Below, in pieces: positions 8,387 to 57,411 of a stretch of 64,000 bases of DNA. The DNA comes from a virus. Its lineage: Duplodnaviria; Heunggongvirae; Uroviricota; Caudoviricetes. The stretch lies in IMG/VR virus record IMGVR_UViG_3300027776_000001, positions 23,746 through 87,745 of that record. One strand, 5' to 3'. Both the position numbers and the translations under genes were made by a program. The notes under the pieces are model-generated. The model did no database searches. It worked only from the letters and a program-made list of their open reading frames with translations, and was not told the origin of the DNA. Position 1 is the stretch's first letter, and each line of letters begins with the position of its first letter.

Positions 8387-8414
8387 AGTATAACAGAAAA
8401 ACCCAATTTGTCAA
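8387..8414 (-). promoter_or_regulatory. sigma70-like promoter TTGACA-16-TATACT with AAAGTATTGACAA extended -35
   Basis: minus strand reads AAAAGTATTGACAAATTGGGTTTTTCTGTTATACT just upstream of ORF start 8372. Confidence 0.4.
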
Positions 8415-8424
8415 TACTTTTCTG

Positions 8425-22983: not shown

Positions 22984-23169
22984 ATGAAGCCAAGCATCAA
23001 ATTGACACGTAATCCTTTTACAGGGGAAGCTCTCTATGAGTGTAGAGGATTTAAGCCGTATGGTGATGTCATCAGAGGGATGTATATAGTTGTTGGTTAC
23101 GGAAGCACTCCTGTAGAGGCTTACTATGACTGGAAAATAAATTCTCCTAAAGCTATTGACAAATGGTAA
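22984..23169 (+). CDS. hypothetical protein
   Basis: 61 aa ORF with AGGAGAA RBS. Confidence 0.35.
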   Translation: MKPSIKLTRNPFTGEALYECRGFKPYGDVIRGMYIVVGYGSTPVEAYYDWKINSPKAIDKW

Positions 23170-23374
23170 TCTTGTGGTAGGATAGAAATGAAATCCTCAG
23201 AAATGAGGTGGACAAGCTCAAGGGAACTCAGGGAGAAGCTCCTTAGACCACAGGACGGACAAGTCTTAGGGAATCTAGGGAGAAGCTATATGGGGTACTG
23301 CGTATGATATCTTGTAAAGTATCTTACAGAAGTCTTGTGGGGGGTAGGGGGGAGTATTGAAAAAGAATTTGTAA

Positions 23375-23405
23375 AGGCAGACTGTTGAGGTCTGCCTTTT
23401 ATTTT
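23375..23405 (+). terminator. rho-independent terminator
   Basis: AGGCAGAC-tgttgag-GTCTGCCT followed by TTTTATTTT. Confidence 0.6.
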
Positions 23406-23421
23406 GTCTAGAGGAGATAGA

Positions 23422-23824: not shown

Positions 23825-23858
23825 AGCCCCTTCACAGAAATGTGTTGGGGCTTTTTCT
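23825..23858 (+). terminator. rho-independent terminator
   Basis: AGCCCC...GGGGCT stem followed by TTTTT. Confidence 0.5.
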
Positions 23859-23940
23859 ATTTCTGGACAGGACAACGTATTGTGTCATCTTGTAATGGCA
23901 TTTTGTCAAATTTCTATGAAAAATTTTTCTGTAGATGGCA

Positions 23941-23955
23941 TGTTACATTGTAACA
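23941..23955. repeat. 15-bp perfect palindrome TGTTACA-T-TGTAACA (operator-like site, copy 1)
   Basis: 7-1-7 inverted repeat in non-coding region. Confidence 0.5.
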
Positions 23956-24390
23956 AAATTGTAGGAGTGATTATAGAAGACTTTAGGAATAGCTTGGGGA
24001 GTAGGCTTACCAAGAGGTAAGGGATTGGGAAAGGATTATTAGGAAAATTGGTAATTTACTTATTCATGGTACTGAAAAATTACTAAATTACTTCTGTATG
24101 GTTTAATAGACCCGGAATGAGTCTTGTTCTCATTGCCCTCACAATCAAAATATCACGCTCTTGTCAAGTATCCCCGTCTAGTAGCCGATGAACGGTCATT
24201 GCATAATGCCTGTCAAATGCACCTTACTTTACATAATGAGTGTTATGCGAAGTCACTTTAGATACCGTCTGTCGGATAGTAATAGGCTTGCATCATGCTT
24301 ACAGAATGTCTTGTTCTAGCACTGATCCGTAGCATTAGCACGTATTTCCCATGCACAGAATGACATTCCACCAGTATTTGCATGATGTAA

Positions 24391-24405
24391 TGTTATAATG
24401 TAACA
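24391..24405. repeat. near-palindrome TGTTATA-A-TGTAACA (operator-like site, copy 2)
   Basis: one mismatch from copy 1, 450 bp downstream, same non-coding region. Confidence 0.45.
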
Positions 24406-24411
24406 TTTTGA

Positions 24412-24640
24412 GTGAACACTCGTTTACTGACTCGTCACACACCACACATTCCTTTCCCCTATACCCAAGCCCTGTACAAGTGCTTACACCATGCTTACAC
24501 AGTCCTTACAAGGACAGGGAGGAAGCCTCAGCCAACCCCCTTAGTAGCCACTCACACTAAACGTTGCACAGACACGTACAATTCCTCACATAAACACACA
24601 TACAAGGCACTATACACATACCCCCATGTAGGGGTGTAGC
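24412..24640 (+). repeat. CA-rich, G-poor low-complexity tract with 11-bp-phased GCTTACAC repeats
   Basis: strong strand asymmetry; GCTTACACCATGCTTACACAGTCCTTACAAGG; ACACATA repeats. Confidence 0.5.
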
Positions 24641-37476: not shown

Positions 37477-37734
37477 TCAAGTGTTGTTTTGCTTGTTGTG
37501 GCGCTTCACTGCGTAGTCTAGACCCTTTGCAACCATAGAGATTACAAAGTATGCTCCAATAACAACAGGCCACAACGCCGTGGTTATAATAACCACCAGC
37601 ATAGCTCCACCGATTGCCTCTTCTTTTTCCTGACCCTTTTCATAGATATCTACAAGAGACTGATGAATCCAGTCCTTGCCATATATCAACCACACCACAG
37701 CCAGAATCAGTCCTATAGTGAGATAACCTAGCAT
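37477..37734 (-). CDS. hypothetical two-TM membrane protein (holin-like topology)
   Basis: 85 aa with two hydrophobic helices and charged C-terminus. Confidence 0.3.
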   Translation of the reverse strand: MLGYLTIGLILAVVWLIYGKDWIHQSLVDIYEKGQEKEEAIGGAMLVVIITTALWPVVIGAYFVISMVAKGLDYAVKRHNKQNNT

Positions 37735-38642
37735 GCTTCACTCCTAACAATGTTACGGATTTCCTCTACGGTTTGGTAACGGATAAGCGTACCATCTTCA
37801 TACACCAGTTCCAGCTCACCAGTAGCTTCCTCTTCACGAGTGGCCTGATCCTTCAGGAACAGAACACCATTTTCGTCACGACCTACGTGTAGCAGACCCT
37901 TAGCACTCTTCTTCACACCCTTGTCAGTGGCTGGGTCTTTGAAGAGTTCTCGGCCCGTACCATTCACAACAGCATGTGTAGCCTTCATTGCCATGCCGTA
38001 GGTGTCACGAGTGATATATTGGTAGGTATAAGACCCAATACCAAACACTACATTACCGCTAGCAAAGTTCATCTTAGCCAGTCGCGTAAGAATCTCTTCA
38101 GCACGCTCCAGAGTGATGCTATCACCATAGATCAGGCCAACCCGCTCACTCAGCATGCGATAACCAGTGGACGTTTCCGTACCACCAAAGGTGTTCCACA
38201 GGCAACGTACAGCGCCAAGGGCTTCGGACTCAGTTATTTCCTTGAAATCTAGGTCATAACCATCAAAATCACCGTAGTAGTAGCGAGCGTACTTATCCAC
38301 TTCGTAATACTTGCCTCCTACCTTGACAACTTCACAATCATCACTTATGTCCCTTTCCTTTATATCATCCACATCAGTGTACTCCACGAGTTCATGAATG
38401 TCGTATCCGCAGATAATACGGAAAGGATCGCCACTATCAGGACGGAACACAGTCTTTGCCAGACCTAGAGCATTCGGGGTACGGGCCAATATCTCCTCTT
38501 TACAAGCTGGTGCAATTTTAGTAATCACATCCCAGAAATTGTAAGTGTCCGATACATAACTGCAAACACCACTAGGATAAATGTTAGTAATGTAGTGCCG
38601 GAAAAACATTGTCTCGGCAATAAGCTTTAGATCATTCTTCAT
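37728..38642 (-). CDS. NAMPT-family phosphoribosyltransferase, C-terminal half (separately translated fragment of split gene; Namat/NadV-like)
   Basis: Homology to NAMPT C-terminal region (VVSDSYD-like CSYVSDTYNFWD, RPDSGDP); own GGAGG RBS + ATG at ~38642 overlapping stop of inserted HNH gene (ATGA). Confidence 0.6.
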   Translation of the reverse strand: MKNDLKLIAETMFFRHYITNIYPSGVCSYVSDTYNFWDVITKIAPACKEEILARTPNALGLAKTVFRPDSGDPFRIICGYDIHELVEYTDVDDIKERDISDDCEVVKVGGKYYEVDKYARYYYGDFDGYDLDFKEITESEALGAVRCLWNTFGGTETSTGYRMLSERVGLIYGDSITLERAEEILTRLAKMNFASGNVVFGIGSYTYQYITRDTYGMAMKATHAVVNGTGRELFKDPATDKGVKKSAKGLLHVGRDENGVLFLKDQATREEEATGELELVYEDGTLIRYQTVEEIRNIVRSEAC

Positions 38643-39177
38643 AAAACCTCCATGTAAGTTTAGTGCCATCTGGCAAAGTTCCTGCGGATTTGAAACCAGT
38701 TTTACCTCTGCAACATGCTGAAATATTGGATTTCTTAAGACCAAGAATTTCTGCTGCCTCTCCAATCGAGTTAAAAACTTGACCAGTAGTAGTACAGACA
38801 ACACTTTTTCCTTGACTTTCTCGAATACCTTGCTTTCTTTTTGCAAAATCTTTTATTAACCTATTGTCCCAAGCGTGTTGAGTTTGTTCTGACCGAGTTG
38901 CCCATTCAAGATTAGAGACATGATTATTCTTTTTGTCCCCATCCTTGTGGTTCACAGTCTCTTTCTTTTCAGGGTTAGGAATAAATGTTTCAGCAACTAG
39001 ACGATGAATCCTTTTTGTGTACCTGTGCCCGTCATCACCTTGTAGTCTAACTACTGAATACCCATCTTTGTTTCTTTGTGGTACAAGAAATCTGTCCACT
39101 GTCAGGGCATATACCTTCCCTTCACAAAATATAAGGTATTTAGAGAAGTTTGTCAACTTCTTCGGCTGTGTAGCCAT
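38632..39177 (-). CDS. HNH homing endonuclease inserted within NAMPT-like gene
   Basis: NHKDGDKKNNHVSNLEWATRSEQ HNH motif plus C-terminal IENR/NUMOD-like VFNSIGEAAEILGL; start taken at MATQPKK (~39177). Confidence 0.6.
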   Translation of the reverse strand: MATQPKKLTNFSKYLIFCEGKVYALTVDRFLVPQRNKDGYSVVRLQGDDGHRYTKRIHRLVAETFIPNPEKKETVNHKDGDKKNNHVSNLEWATRSEQTQHAWDNRLIKDFAKRKQGIRESQGKSVVCTTTGQVFNSIGEAAEILGLKKSNISACCRGKTGFKSAGTLPDGTKLTWRFYEE

Positions 39178-39979
39178 TCCATTCTCCTTTATCCTTAAGC
39201 TCTTGTTCAATAAGTAAAATATTACAAGATGCAGTACTGTGTTCGCTTGCAGGAACAGAGCCACCAAGGAACGTACTACCACCATTGTAGAACTGCTCAA
39301 GATAATCCATAGCAGGAATCGTATCAGTGCCAAGGAAGCTTAGCAAATGACCAGCGCTATAACCAGTATCAGACACACCACCAACACCACGGAAGCTGAA
39401 GTCATGACCTTGCCACTCAGTGAATTCCACAGGAGTGCCAGTCTTTTTTGCGTAGTGTACCAACAGACGCTTGTATTCAGCGGCAATAGTTGCAACAGTG
39501 GTGGCCTTCCACAGCTCTGCAGACAGCAGAGTTTCTAGGAAATTTGTCACCCAAAAGAACTCAGGCAGGGTATTAGTAATCGTCAGCATAGGCACCTTAG
39601 AAGGAACGAAGCTGCCTTCCTTGATAGCCTTAATACGGATTGGCAGATAGCCTAGCTTATGCAGAGCTTCGATATGATCAAAGCCTACAGCACCCGGCCC
39701 AAGAGAGCTATCCATACGACGCTGCCATTGCGCTTTCACCACTTCGAGAGGTTTACCAAAGAAATTACGCAGGAAATCATCCTGAATAATGTTCAGCAGG
39801 AAGCCCTGCAAGCCAAAGAATACCACACCATCCTTGGCAAAGCTGCTCTTCTTAGCCAAACGGCTGGAACGTGGTGTAAGGTTGGAGTAAATATACTCAG
39901 TGCCTTCAGGGTATTGATTGATGTGATTTATTTTGTAAAAATCAACCGCAGTAATCGGATTATAATTAAACATGTTCAT
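39140..39979 (-). CDS. NAMPT-family phosphoribosyltransferase, N-terminal half (Namat/NadV-like)
   Basis: [16 protein letters not shown] matches NAMPT N-terminus; [25 protein letters not shown] and SVPASEHST match conserved NAMPT core; last ~27 aa non-homologous read-through. Confidence 0.65.
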
Positions 39980-40493
39980 AGTCTCCTATTGGAAAATTAG
40001 TTCTGGCAAATTTGCCGTGCATCTGTATTGCGGCTTTATCGTAAGCTCTAGCAGCTTCCTCTTTAGTGTCGTATCTGCCAAGCTTGTAGATTATACCATC
40101 TTTTCGGATATAGGAAAGCCACCTTATTTCTCGCCCTTTCCTTGTGACACCTTTGAAGCCTGATTTACTCCAACCTTCTCTGTTTGCACAGTTATTACTT
40201 CTTGTTGCAGGTCGAAGATTTTCAATCCTGTTATCGTTCTCTACCCTGTTTTCATGGTCAATCTCATGGTCAGGATACTTACCATAATGAAGAAGCCATA
40301 CTAAACAGTGCTCACGGTAATATACACCATGAATTTTCAAGGTCACATAACCATGAACCGGGTGAACACTCCCCGCCCGTTTTCCTACACAATCCTTGGC
40401 TCTGCCTTTAACCCAAGTCTTGAAATACAAGTGCCCATCAGTCCGGTACTCATACCTTTCGTTGAGCACTTGAAGTAATTCTTCGTCACTCAC
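39966..40493 (-). CDS. HNH-AP2 homing endonuclease
   Basis: [20 protein letters not shown] motif and AP2-like [40 protein letters not shown]. Confidence 0.6.
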
Positions 40494-41885: not shown

Positions 41886-42038
41886 ACCATATAGTCCATG
41901 TCTTGTGCCCCGAAAATACGTTCCATAGCCCGCTAGAACTTACGCAGCGTGGTGTGACGTTCTTCATACTTTTGTCTCCTTGTTGATCAATGTCGCCATT
42001 GATCCACACTTCTTCTCGCATGTCAACCTAAATTTGTC

Positions 42039-42067
42039 TTGACAAAGCAGGATGTTTGGTGTATGCT
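42039..42067 (+). promoter_or_regulatory. sigma70-like promoter TTGACA-17-TATGCT
   Basis: TTGACAAAGCAGGATGTTTGGTGTATGCT at start of plus-strand block. Confidence 0.4.
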
Positions 42068-42260
42068 TGTGGGGTATCGTGAGGTACGGGGAGTGGTGTC
42101 TGGAATCGTGGCTCCGAAGTTGATCAGCAACATTGTTGGTCAGAGTCGTGATTCTCCCAGGCTTCTTCAGGGCTGTCAAGTCTTGAGGGGGCTAGGGGGA
42201 GTCGTGACTGAAATGTTCACCAAAGTTGATACTACTACATAGTACATAGAGATACTGTAC

Positions 42261-42325
42261 AAGAAGCTCCTGAAGATAGTTTGCAAGCTCATTGCAGATG
42301 TTCTTCAGGAGCTTCTTCGTTTTGT
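42261..42325 (+). terminator. long perfect hairpin (16-bp stem) followed by T-rich tract; terminator or processing/regulatory structure
   Basis: AAGAAGCTCCTGAAGA...TCTTCAGGAGCTTCTT with inner TGCAA..TTGCA palindrome, then CGTTTTGTG. Confidence 0.5.
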
Positions 42326-42379
42326 GCTTGACATAGGTGAAAGAAGACAGTAGGATGAAAGTACAACTGGAGAGGATAC

Positions 42380-43144
42380 ATGGGAAGAAAGGCAATTACA
42401 ACAGAAGAGTTTATTGAAGCAGCTAAAAAATTACACGGAGATACCTACAACTATTTCAAGACAAAATATACAGGAAGATTAAACAAGGTGTTGATCACTT
42501 GCCCTGTTCATGGTGATTTCATGCAATGGCCTGCTAGTCATCTGTCGGGTAGTGGGTGCAGGAAATGCTCTAGAAGTAGCAGAGCTAAGGGATTGGGAAA
42601 ATTCATAAACGAGTCTGTCTCCAAGTTTGGAAAGAAGTTTAGCTACAAAAATGTAGATTACAGGAATGCTCACTGTAAAGTAATCTTGGAATGTTCAATC
42701 CATGGAGAGTTTGAAATTATTGCACGAAAACACTTGCAAAGTCCTACAGGTTGCCCAAGCTGTGCTAAGACAGGTTTCAATCCCCATGCACCACAAGCTA
42801 CGTTTTATGTTTTCAATGTTATTGGTGAAAGAAGTTTTGTTAAGTTTGGCATAACTGGGAAATTAAATGACAGGCTAGCAACTCATAGAAGAAACCTGAA
42901 ATTACATGATTTAAGAATCTCTGGAGGTGTTTTATGTCTACATTTTTCAGCGAAAATGGTTCAAAAATTAGAGGCACATATAAAATCTAGTATAGTAGTT
43001 GAAAGGTCAGACATAAAGGGTTTCAAGACAGAGGTCACTACTTGTGTGCCAAAAGAAGAACTTCTCATGCTTTGCAAATATTGGTTGACTTCTAACGACG
43101 TTGCGTTTATAGTAACAGAACTTAAGAATAAGGAGTTAGTATGA
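42380..43144 (+). CDS. homing endonuclease-like protein, T5orf172/GIY-YIG-like with two zinc-ribbon repeats
   Basis: CPVHGDF..H..GCRKC and CSIHGEF..H..GCPSC repeats; FYVFNVIGERSFVKFGIT motif; paralog of 5941..6654. Confidence 0.5.
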   Translation: MGRKAITTEEFIEAAKKLHGDTYNYFKTKYTGRLNKVLITCPVHGDFMQWPASHLSGSGCRKCSRSSRAKGLGKFINESVSKFGKKFSYKNVDYRNAHCKVILECSIHGEFEIIARKHLQSPTGCPSCAKTGFNPHAPQATFYVFNVIGERSFVKFGITGKLNDRLATHRRNLKLHDLRISGGVLCLHFSAKMVQKLEAHIKSSIVVERSDIKGFKTEVTTCVPKEELLMLCKYWLTSNDVAFIVTELKNKELV

Positions 43145-53421: not shown

Positions 53422-54711
53422 ATGAACCATCAAGCCATTGTAGCTGTTGTTACTGAAGTAATTGAAATTGAAAATGCAGACAAAATCCACATTGCCAAGG
53501 TTCTTGGTGAGACTTGTATTGTTTCCAAGGATGTAGGAGTAGGCCACATTGGCGTTCTGTTCCCAGAGGGTGTTCAACTCTCTGAGGAGTATTGCAAGTA
53601 CAACAACCTGTATAGAGACAAAAGCAAGAATACCAACCCTGAAAAGGCCGGCTTCTTTGAAGGCACTCGTCGTGTACGTGCTCAACCTTTTCTCAAGGTG
53701 CGCTCCACTGCATACTTTGCGAATCTGGATAGCCTTGCCTATACCAATTCCAGCGATTTTAAGCTTGGTTATAGCTTCTCTGAAATCAATGGCAAGGAAA
53801 TCTGTCGTAAGTATATCAGCAAGGCTACACAGGAGAGCTTGGCGAAAGCTAATCGTCCTAAGCAGGCGAAGATAGATTATGCTCCTGACTTCCTGAAGCA
53901 TGTTGATAGTGCTCAGTTCAAGCATGCTGCTGGTCAGATTGAGAAGGGCAGTCTACTGCATTTCCATGCTAAGGTGCATGGCACTTCTGCCCGTATGGCT
54001 CATACTAAGGTGGCTGTAGAGCTGAATGGTTTTCAGAAGCTGGTGAACAAGCTATTTGGCAAGGAAATCTTTGCTACGACCAAGTATGATTTTGTTGTGG
54101 GCACCCGTAATGTGGTTCTACACAATACTAACAAAGAAGGTTTCCATGGCTTGGAACAATTCCGTTTCGATGTAATGGAGCAGGTTAAGCCTTTCTTGGT
54201 CAAGGGTATGACTGTGTACGGTGAGATTGCAGGCTTTGCTAATAACAAGCCTATTATGCCAAGCCACTCTATCAAGGTGCTGAAGGATAAGGCTTTCATG
54301 GCTAAGTATGGTGATGAGGTGATTTACCGGTATGGCTGCGGAGATTACACCAAATACCGCTTCCACATCTACCGTATTACGTTGACGAATGGTGATGGTG
54401 TGACGATTGACTACACCCAGAAGCAGATTGATGATTTCTGTAAGAGTTGTCAGTTGCTCGCTCCGTTTGAAGTGCATCCACCAATCGTGTACGATGGTAA
54501 TGTACGTGATCTGCAAGACCTTGTAGAGAAGCTTACAGAGCGTCCTGAAGTGTTGACGGAAGACTATATTGATCCTTCCCATATTTCTGAAGGTATTATT
54601 GTTCGTGAAGATCATGGTGGATTGATTCCACGATTCTACAAGAGCAAGAGTTATGCTTTCCGAGCTATGGAAGGGATTTGTGAGGTAGAAGACCCAGAGG
54701 ATGCTGCATAA
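53422..54711 (+). CDS. ATP-dependent RNA ligase (Rnl2/Rnl5-like nucleotidyltransferase with N-terminal domain)
   Basis: motif I KVHGT (FHAKVHGTSARM), EGIIVRE (motif IV) and RFYKSKSY (motif V K-x-K). Confidence 0.6.
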   Translation: MNHQAIVAVVTEVIEIENADKIHIAKVLGETCIVSKDVGVGHIGVLFPEGVQLSEEYCKYNNLYRDKSKNTNPEKAGFFEGTRRVRAQPFLKVRSTAYFANLDSLAYTNSSDFKLGYSFSEINGKEICRKYISKATQESLAKANRPKQAKIDYAPDFLKHVDSAQFKHAAGQIEKGSLLHFHAKVHGTSARMAHTKVAVELNGFQKLVNKLFGKEIFATTKYDFVVGTRNVVLHNTNKEGFHGLEQFRFDVMEQVKPFLVKGMTVYGEIAGFANNKPIMPSHSIKVLKDKAFMAKYGDEVIYRYGCGDYTKYRFHIYRITLTNGDGVTIDYTQKQIDDFCKSCQLLAPFEVHPPIVYDGNVRDLQDLVEKLTERPEVLTEDYIDPSHISEGIIVREDHGGLIPRFYKSKSYAFRAMEGICEVEDPEDAA

Positions 54712-56245: not shown

Positions 56246-56485
56246 ATGGCAGAGGACTTGCAAACACTGGAGAAAACCTACAAGAAGGCTAAACGAGCAT
56301 TGGACAATGCTTCTAATAAGTATAGCAAAGCTTTGTCAGACCTACAATCTGCTTGTCCTCATACAAAGGTTGCTTGGAGTGAATGGAAGCGTAGTAATAG
56401 TGAATGGGACTACTACGCACATTACTCGCGTAATGGATATTGTGAACTTTGTAGAAAGTGGTTCACAGAGAGTAAGGAGAGATAA
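56246..56485 (+). CDS. hypothetical zinc-ribbon protein
   Basis: 79 aa; CPH...C..C pairs. Confidence 0.35.
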   Translation: MAEDLQTLEKTYKKAKRALDNASNKYSKALSDLQSACPHTKVAWSEWKRSNSEWDYYAHYSRNGYCELCRKWFTESKER

Positions 56486-57411
56486 TGCCAAAAGCAATCA
56501 TTACAATTGGTGTGTCAGCATCAGGTAAGTCTGCATGGGCCGATGAATTTGTCAAGACCAACAAGGACTATGTCAAAATTGAACACGATGAATTGCGTAA
56601 AGTAATCCTGTTGGAACAAGGAATAGACATTGGTGACGGTAATATCTGGCGTTTCTACGATTTCCGTAAGCATGAAGCTGCTACTCAGCGGTTGGCTGAT
56701 ACTGAGCTTGACCTGCATCTGCAGTATCAGAATTACAACCTTATCTTCTCTGACACCAACCTGAATCCAAAGTATCGTAACCAACTGGTTGACAAGCTTC
56801 AACGAGCAGGGTATGATGTGGAAATTAAAGAGTTCCCTATCACATTTGAAGAGGCTGTCAAGCGTAATGCCAAGCGTCAGCATGCTGTCGATAAGGAAGT
56901 GCTTTACAAGCAGTGGCAACGTTGGATTGATTATTTGAAGAGCAAGGGTGAATTCCCTAATGGGGCACTCATCCAGTCTCCAACTCCTCTTCATCATGCA
57001 GTATTGCTAGACATGGAGGGGACAATTGCTCTTCACACTTCTGGTCGCAGTCCTTTTGACGAAGATCGTGTGCATGAAGATAGTTGTGATTTGATTGTTA
57101 AGCATGTGATTGAAGGGTTGGATGCAAAGGGCTATACAATCATTGTCATGTCTGGTCGTACAGAAGGGTGCAAAGAAGCTACAGAAGAGTGGCTTCAGTA
57201 TTACGGCATTCCTTATGATGAAATTCACATGCGTAAGGTGGAGGATACACGAAGGGATTTTGAAGTAAAGAAAGACTTGTTTGTTGAGCATGTTCTCGGC
57301 AAGTTTCATGTGTATGCCGTGTTTGATGATCGGCCTCAAGTTGTAAGGCTGTGGCACGATCTTGGTATTAACAAAGTGTTTTGTGTTGGCAACCCTTGGG
57401 TGGAGTTCTGA
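56485..57411 (+). CDS. polynucleotide kinase-3'-phosphatase (T4 Pnkp-like)
   Basis: N-terminal P-loop GVSASGKS; C-terminal HAD-like LLDMEGTIA (DxDGT-type) phosphatase motif. Confidence 0.7.
   Translation: MPKAIITIGVSASGKSAWADEFVKTNKDYVKIEHDELRKVILLEQGIDIGDGNIWRFYDFRKHEAATQRLADTELDLHLQYQNYNLIFSDTNLNPKYRNQLVDKLQRAGYDVEIKEFPITFEEAVKRNAKRQHAVDKEVLYKQWQRWIDYLKSKGEFPNGALIQSPTPLHHAVLLDMEGTIALHTSGRSPFDEDRVHEDSCDLIVKHVIEGLDAKGYTIIVMSGRTEGCKEATEEWLQYYGIPYDEIHMRKVEDTRRDFEVKKDLFVEHVLGKFHVYAVFDDRPQVVRLWHDLGINKVFCVGNPWVEF

Follow-up and report, generated by a model that had tools for sequence, protein, structure and literature searches.

We analysed a divergent intergenic region near 42 kb in a 64-kb stretch of DNA (the window), which is part of an uncharacterised tailed-phage genome with a GC content of ~43%. 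Genes run leftward from ~41.97 kb and rightward from 42.38 kb, and the candidate non-coding RNA (ncRNA) element described here therefore lies in a divergent control region. Perfect TTGACA -35 sites are frequent throughout the window and are oriented with the genes; because of this co-orientation the promoters look real, and the phage probably uses the host sigma-70 polymerase throughout.

Read on the plus strand, the region opens with promoter P_A (TTGACA-17-TATGCT, 42039-42067), which matches the consensus at 10 of 12 positions and places the predicted start near 42074. A G-rich leader, recognised by reading the sequence, covers 42069-42096. Then come a small predicted hairpin, H1 (42120-42143; 10 bp including G-U pairs), directly 5' of a long hairpin, H2 (42144-42209), and finally a terminator-like hairpin, T_A (42261-42325). 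The latter has a perfect 16-bp stem (arms 42261-42276 and 42302-42317), an inner 8-bp stem (range 5-8 bp) and then CGUUUUGUGCUU, with the tail CGTTTTGTGCTT. T_A is predicted to fold at -39 kcal/mol on the plus strand and -32 on the minus strand, and the U-rich tail is found on the plus strand only. A pattern-based terminator scan passed over T_A because its loop is 25 nt long. The original prediction for this region had reported P_A, the G-tract-rich leader and the 16-bp inverted repeat with its inner palindrome and T-rich tract, all of which are present. It had missed H2 and two further promoters. P_B (TTGACA-17-TAGGAT, a consensus match on the plus strand, 42328-42356) lies just upstream of the first rightward gene (ribosome binding site 42369, ATG 42380). 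Since this gene has its own promoter after T_A, the element is more than just its leader. A strong leftward promoter, P_L (TTGACA-17-GAGAAT, preceded by a TG), lies on the minus strand (42179-42151), with its -35 in the H2 loop and its -10 in the H2 5' arm. P_L faces P_A, the predicted starts being ~69 nt apart, and no better leftward promoter was seen by eye in 41967-42380.

P_A and T_A bracket a predicted non-coding transcript of ~250 nt (42074-42325, plus strand). The interval holds only open reading frames (ORFs) that lack a ribosome binding site, and none is credible. The RNA from 42074 to 42330 (257 nt) has a minimum free energy (MFE) of -121.1 kcal/mol (z = -10).

The core of this transcript is H2, a plus-strand hairpin of 30 bp with one A/A mismatch and a GUCA loop, made up of 13 G-C, 7 A-U and 10 G-U pairs and zero A-C. 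Because a third of the pairs are G-U, the hairpin forms solely in the plus-strand RNA: predicted energies are -45.2 kcal/mol for the plus RNA (z -7.8), -14.2 for the minus RNA (z -0.5) and -11.2 for the plus-strand DNA (z -2.3). The strand asymmetry of -31 kcal/mol lies 6.5 standard deviations from the mean, and the runner-up in the window reaches -17.7. Similarly, in a sliding 80-nt fold scan of both strands of the 64 kb (128 kb), the H2 and T_A hairpins ranked first and second, at -45.2 and -42.2 kcal/mol, where the background is -14.6 +/- 4.7. Under neutral decay of a DNA palindrome, ten G-T and no A-C mispairs would arise with a probability of ~2^-10. Given this 10:0 split and a fold that is specific to one strand and to RNA, we take the plus-strand RNA structure of H2 to be under selection, for which they constitute good evidence.

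The G-rich motif AAGTCTTGAGGGGGCTAGGGGGAGT (42178-42202, plus strand) is the 3' arm of H2. It had been described as a 26-bp motif at 42178-42205; the motif is indeed there, the quoted string being 25 nt rather than 26-28. It had also been taken for a free-standing site 20-30 nt before a terminator. At 42 kb it is instead one arm of a G-U-rich duplex, 56-59 nt from T_A, and the short spacing is seen only at a second locus near 23 kb (18 nt before the stem). Two Shine-Dalgarno-like sites lie inside the motif, and the G-rich strand is predicted to pair with the 16S 3' end at -9 to -11 kcal/mol, the median for the phage's real ribosome binding sites being -7.9. No U tract follows the 3' side of H2. 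A canonical G-quadruplex, with four tracts of at least three G and loops of 1-7 nt, is not present, as G5-CTA-G5 and G6-TA-G6 each give two tracts; at most a two-quartet form (GG-N-GG-N3-GG-N-GG) could be drawn, and the G tracts are base-paired in H2.

All four reported copies of (A/G)TCGTG(A/G) were found, at 42076, 42105, 42145 and 42201. TCGTGR occurs 23 times on the plus strand of the 64 kb, and with ~0.05 copies expected per 130 nt the local enrichment is ~80-fold. Their description as iterons was not borne out. Two of the four form the base of H2 by pairing with each other, GUCGUGA with GUCGUGA via G-U, and the hairpin thus explains half of the enrichment; moreover, TCGTGR is absent from the comparable hairpin of another phage contig (L029, below). 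Conserved double-stranded DNA sites independent of RNA pairing, as iterons or operators would present, were not found.

The same promoter-to-terminator bracket recurs on the plus strand near 23 kb. There, a promoter (TTGACA-16-TAGGAT with an upstream TG, a consensus match, 23156-23183) and a canonical terminator (23373-23399; 11 pairs, a 5-nt loop and the U-tract tail TATTTTGT) delimit a non-coding unit of ~215 nt (23190-23408; fold z -3.5), which is without an ORF and matched no family in an Rfam search. The stable stem-loop and immediate U tract of an intrinsic terminator are both found in 23373-23408. Gene 23422, whose ribosome binding site and ATG lie beyond this terminator, has no promoter of its own after it. 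At both loci, the promoter and terminator that would mark a small RNA (sRNA) gene are recognised by consensus matches only.

Three motif copies, R1, R2 and R3, lie in the 23-kb unit. R1 is a partial copy and forms repeat family D13 together with R2, a smaller paralogue of H2 (23239-23282, plus strand). The apical stem of R2, AGGAC/GUCUU, is the same as that of H2 with a G-to-A change that keeps the pair, and its lower stem is CUCCUUAGA/UCUAGGGAG. With 16 pairs and internal loops, as against 30 bp in H2, it folds at -20.8 kcal/mol on the plus strand (z -3.9) and -13.0 on the minus strand (z -1.2). R3 (23330-23355, plus strand), the second copy reported earlier, is an unpaired version of the G-rich arm placed 18 nt before the terminator stem; it lies outside any long hairpin and is identical to the 42-kb motif at 23 of 26 positions, with one gap. 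In its degenerate form the motif occurs four times in the window, confined to these two intergenic loci and to the plus strand. In addition, a five-codon mini-ORF (23290-23307, plus strand; AUG GGG UAC UGC GUA UGA) begins 7 nt past the Shine-Dalgarno-like GGGAG of R2, and may encode a leader peptide or have arisen by chance.

Database comparisons placed neither locus in a described family. An Rfam scan of the 64-kb window at gathering thresholds returned five tRNAs as its sole matches. An Rfam 15 search of the two loci and L029 with E-values up to 10 gave only generic hairpin noise, for example microRNA precursors, whose 13-21 bits fall short of thresholds of 57-100, and a literature search for the motif string retrieved unrelated primers only. 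No nucleotide match to the 42-kb region, or to 25 kb of the window, was found in 50,697 phage records. Relatives in this collection are distant and detectable at the protein level only, the best identity of the large terminase TerL being 41%, to PAK_P1-like and Otagovirus-like Pseudomonas phages. The 42-kb region is 100% identical in independent sample copies (L001/L002, ENA ERZ27257522). In that assembly, two contigs (2.0 and 3.3 kb) end at window positions 41986 and 41994, within the divergent gap; the contigs being short, low coverage may be the reason. The genome may also physically end there, or the structured region may have disturbed the assembly.

A PhoH search yielded syntenic relatives at 60-72% identity; the PRPP (phosphoribosyl pyrophosphate)-synthetase-like gene was also tried as a route to relatives and was set aside, the nearest being 42% identical and not syntenic. 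In the PhoH relatives no hairpin of comparable strand asymmetry was seen except a different repeat hairpin in L021. This genome has eight intergenic TTAAGGGT repeats spaced at 10-12 nt, which fold as a 29-bp G-U-rich hairpin specific to the plus strand (-27.9 vs -10.1 kcal/mol, z -5.5) upstream of a gene of 442 aa without an assigned function (phrog_4756). The L021 hairpin may be functionally analogous to the 23-kb unit.

An exact 22-nt pattern from the G-rich arm had no match in IMG/VR, and a single Streptomyces match in a genome collection was judged to be chance. The metagenome scan with the same pattern gave two matches, of which L029 seems genuine and L030 was rejected as G-rich junk. L029 is a 2.2-kb phage-like contig with a GC content of 55%; its region is 100% identical in three further copies (L045-L047). 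Its 3' arm is identical to that of H2 over the 22 nt and belongs to a 28-bp hairpin with 10 G-U pairs in the same register, in which the basal stem differs in sequence and retains pairing. The fold is again specific to the plus strand (z -5.2 vs -0.4). It lies on the coding strand of a 354-nt gap, ~65 nt before the next gene, and no terminator follows it. A looser scan of IMG/VR, whose matches were mostly coding or chance and were discarded, revealed a third phage (L033, L035, L040 and L041) with GUCUUG-G8-UAG7 as the 3' arm of a 31-bp hairpin, located in a divergent gap before an HNH-like gene and with GUCUU in the loop. This hairpin is a possible analogue of H2. By our grouping, 2 of ~7 distinct pattern matches elsewhere are the 3' arms of 28-31 bp hairpins. 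No shared protein was found among the window, L029 and L035, and L029 has none in common with the window. The link to L029, which relies on the coincidence of motif, hairpin and register, is suggestive and not proven.

The bracket of promoter and terminator together with the RNA-only hairpin makes a discrete structured ncRNA, of a new family, the best reading, and in this the original prediction of an RNA-level element stands. We put at roughly 0.55 the probability that the 42-kb interval is the gene for such an RNA, with the 30-bp hairpin at its core and a second unit at 23 kb. The structured element is real and unusual and is most probably a new phage ncRNA; it matches no described family. 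The host sigma-70 polymerase would initiate at the 42039 promoter, produce a structured RNA of ~250 nt and halt at the 42261-42325 hairpin with its U-rich tail. The hairpin would be the functional module, its G-rich, Shine-Dalgarno-like strand being the sequence-constrained part recognised by a partner, for which a protein, a pyrimidine-rich RNA or the 16S 3' end are candidates. The pyrimidine strand would need only to pair with the G-rich strand, thereby masking it. From the conservation of the G-rich strand in sequence and of its partner in pairing ability only, and from a predicted 16S pairing stronger than the median, we infer that the hairpin presents or masks the recognised strand. A duplex of this length would be a substrate of RNase III, which calls for a double-stranded stretch of at least ~20 bp in the transcribed RNA (30 bp in H2, 28 bp in L029), and processing of H2 into stable fragments is likely for this reason. 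Should both promoters fire, the 42-kb RNA would overlap the leading ~70 nt of the leftward early transcript in antisense, and its transcription would pass through P_L. Processing, attenuation, antisense control and Shine-Dalgarno mimicry are candidate modes of action; an antitermination or processing role for the motif, which had been suggested before, is possible.

Several observations weigh against a discrete ncRNA. Both the start and the end of the ~250-nt transcript are predictions, and T_A is atypical as a terminator, with its 25-nt loop and just four U in succession. The supposed recognition strand at 42 kb is buried in a -45 kcal/mol stem, and a target search within the window with the G-rich strand gave no convincing complementary site; the accessible seed with complementary targets of a trans-acting sRNA is therefore not found here. 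The presence of two copies, which the original prediction had considered telling, is by itself no better than chance: the repeat ranks 8th among the direct repeats of the window at 31.5 bits, and block shuffles give 29.5-37.2 bits. It is the context of the copies that goes beyond chance. The copies of each hairpin from different samples are identical and offer no within-lineage covariation. Conservation of the motif in related phages had been proposed as a check, with a divided outcome: in the available parts of the relatives with 60-72% identical PhoH there is no motif and no similarity to either locus, and the same hairpin type occurs in the unrelated contig L029. For the latter, by our estimate, a database that large should contain about one chance match to the 22-nt pattern. 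The flanks of the 42-kb locus and L029 share no significant similarity (p 0.36 and 0.63), and a covariance model built on the single H2 sequence scores L029 at a weak 19.7 bits and barely recovers the L035-type hairpin.

Several features at 42 kb could also belong to a cis-acting attenuator, in which H2 would act as an anti-antiterminator: a factor bound to the emerging G-rich arm would free the H2 5' arm to pair with the T_A 5' arm and so allow read-through into the rightward genes, and the same factor would have a site at 23 kb in R3, the free G-rich arm 18 nt ahead of the terminator. The required pairing exists, since 42160-42175 of the H2 5' arm binds the T_A 5' arm at -18.4 kcal/mol, within the top 0.03% of 16-mers in the window (local probability ~0.04), and with the G-rich arm blocked the antiterminator is the MFE structure of the nascent transcript up to 42300. 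T_A itself, at -39 kcal/mol, is thermodynamically far more stable than this alternative. Conservation of the G-rich arm in sequence and of its partner in pairing ability only would suit such a factor, and at 23 kb read-through would serve gene 23422, for which no separate promoter follows the terminator; however, the best antiterminator pairing there is -9 kcal/mol (top 7%), which does not qualify. At 42 kb read-through is unneeded, as a consensus promoter (42328) follows T_A, and in L029 there is no terminator downstream of the hairpin to be overcome. We regard an attenuator as unlikely.

The facing promoters raise the possibility that P_A serves to control the leftward early operon, by transcribing through P_L and by producing an RNA antisense to the leading ~70 nt of the leftward mRNA. 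Comparable arrangements are those of coliphages 186 and P2, whose promoters also face each other, and of the sar/ant pair in P22. P_L is the best leftward promoter in the gap, with a perfect -35, a 17-bp spacer, an upstream TG and A2 and T6 of the -10 hexamer; it lies face to face with P_A at the ~69-nt distance given above, and the P_A transcript is non-coding and stopped ahead of the rightward genes. The arrangement is absent at 23 kb, however, and the reverse complement of L029 has no credible promoter, so that antisense control and transcriptional interference leave the shared hairpin unexplained. As the whole account of the locus this is equally doubtful, and it can coexist with a discrete ncRNA. 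Because neither the attenuator pairing nor the facing promoters recur at 23 kb or in L029, we rank both as rivals or add-ons to that ncRNA.

Very improbable, in our view, is that nothing special is encoded here, with ordinary terminator or stability hairpins occupying a promoter-rich gap and the G-rich string being a chance low-complexity match. The repeat score does fall inside the shuffle range, and at the level of the motif alone the database matches are compatible with chance. Yet no U tract follows H2, which exceeds everything else in the 64 kb in both fold stability and strand asymmetry; the four motif copies all lie between genes on a single strand, and two of the ~7 matches elsewhere turn out to be arms of long hairpins. 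Finally, a DNA-level set of protein-binding repeats (an operator or replication origin with AGGG repeats and TCGTGR as sites and the hairpins incidental) fits poorly and is the least probable reading, for although AGGG cores lie 10 nt apart within R1 and within R2, L021 has its regularly spaced repeats and the cumulative GC skew has a minimum near 42 kb, H2 is near-perfect only with G-U allowed, weak as DNA (-11 kcal/mol, z -2.3) and absent on the other strand, the 10:0 excess of G-U over A-C is left without a reason, TCGTGR is not kept in L029, and the skew follows gene orientation across the whole window and is therefore uninformative on a replication origin.

Among described systems are phage sRNAs bracketed by their own promoter and terminator; those of PAK_P3 (PMC4933390) measure ~100 nt, map close to tRNA genes and are transcribed late. 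Like sRNA1 and sRNA2 of that phage and the band C and D RNAs of T4, the 42-kb RNA would be a short, abundant-type intergenic transcript of a virulent-type phage with no assigned function, in this case predicted only; no relationship in sequence or structure to the PAK_P3-type sRNAs was found, and no match in the phage collection. The RNase III hairpins of phages (T7 R0.3-R1.3, the SP82 early sites and the lambda N leader) resemble H2 in forming long double-stranded RNA from the transcribed strand, within leaders or intergenic stretches, and in recurring as related sequences in a single genome. At the T7 sites the duplex has an internal loop and is cut once, whereas H2 is an almost uninterrupted 30-bp duplex; the SP82 early sites adjoin a polypurine, Shine-Dalgarno-like stabiliser. 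Unlike these hairpins, the 42-kb copy lies in a transcript that ends before any gene.

The put RNAs of HK022 are likewise two related structured elements, each located just after an early promoter and ahead of terminators. They are ~70 nt long, consist of two short stem-loops and act in cis on the transcribing polymerase, which becomes resistant to terminators. The likeness is positional only (promoter, element, terminator, in two copies), with no evident similarity, and at 42 kb nothing upstream needs read-through, as a new promoter follows the terminator. Attenuator leaders controlled by a protein or a ligand resemble the 42-kb locus in its three mutually exclusive pairings, and the conserved strand could be a factor-binding site; the design is, however, not reproduced at 23 kb or in L029, and no Rfam riboswitch or leader matched. 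The T4-type promoter-early stem-loop (PeSL) cassettes are similar to the right-hand end of the locus, where the 16-bp hairpin and then a TTGACA promoter precede a free-standing endonuclease gene (42261-42356), and leave H2 and the motif unaccounted for.

To our knowledge, structures or roles have been established for few small RNAs of virulent-type phages. If expressed, the 42-kb RNA would add to this short list a well-defined and readily testable member, whose 30-bp RNA-only hairpin with its conserved G-rich strand occupies the divergence point of early transcription; without expression, the locus would be just a compact promoter and terminator hub. The same arm and hairpin type in an unrelated phage hints at a shared partner or at the exchange of small-RNA modules between phages, either of which could reveal how phages tune early transcription or use host RNA machinery. 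A bolder and tentative proposal, which we hold to be possible rather than probable, is that the G-U-rich hairpin with the conserved strand GUCUUG-N-G5-N-UAG5 is a new RNA module exchanged among unrelated phages. To a conserved host partner (such as the 16S 3' end, RNA polymerase or an RNA-binding protein) it would either expose or hide a G-rich, Shine-Dalgarno-like strand; it would serve as a context-dependent switch, whether as the core of a small RNA, a leader element or an anti-antiterminator, and would then represent a new class of phage riboregulator.

The remaining gene content of the window includes PhoH, a ClpP-like protease, a primase-helicase and a nicotinamide adenine dinucleotide (NAD) salvage set of two genes. 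Domain searches of the small proteins flanking the elements were uninformative. HNH or DUF723 endonuclease genes are numerous, with at least seven in the 64 kb (starts 5941, 15353, 36860, 39966, 42380, 47927 and 51350); the one at 42380 has its own promoter directly 3' of the 16-bp hairpin. Another (39966-40493) lies between the PRPP-synthetase-like gene and a split nicotinamide phosphoribosyltransferase (Nampt) gene (37728-39979, minus strand). The N-terminal ORF of the latter (39140-39979) corresponds to profile positions 9-262 and the C-terminal ORF (37728-38846) to positions 262-496, with a gap of 293 nt between them. An Rfam search of the split gene for a group I intron gave no match; the break may be due to an intron or a frameshift, or the gene may be truly split.

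Beyond the terminator at 23825-23858, ~700 nt between convergent transcription units (23860-24550) contain no convincing ORF and have G-rich runs on both strands. In the closest syntenic relatives, a conserved non-coding block (TAGAATGGCTCTAGGAGCGGCTTCCAGAGGAGTTTTTT ... CCCCATATGGAAGAG) follows the ClpP terminator (L021 12356-12660, L010 9646-9963 and L007 12242-12725); this block is absent from the window. The RNA ligase and polynucleotide kinase genes (53422-54711 and 56485-57411), along with the eight tRNA genes at 15.9-16.6 kb (15916-16610), make up a tRNA repair and supply set, as is typical of phages that counter anticodon nucleases. Finally, near-identical leftward promoters (AAAAGTATTGACAAATTG...TGgTATAGT) precede structural-module genes on the minus strand at 8387-8421, 13687-13722, 16657-16692 and 17988-18015, which suggests that late genes are also served by sigma-70-type promoters.

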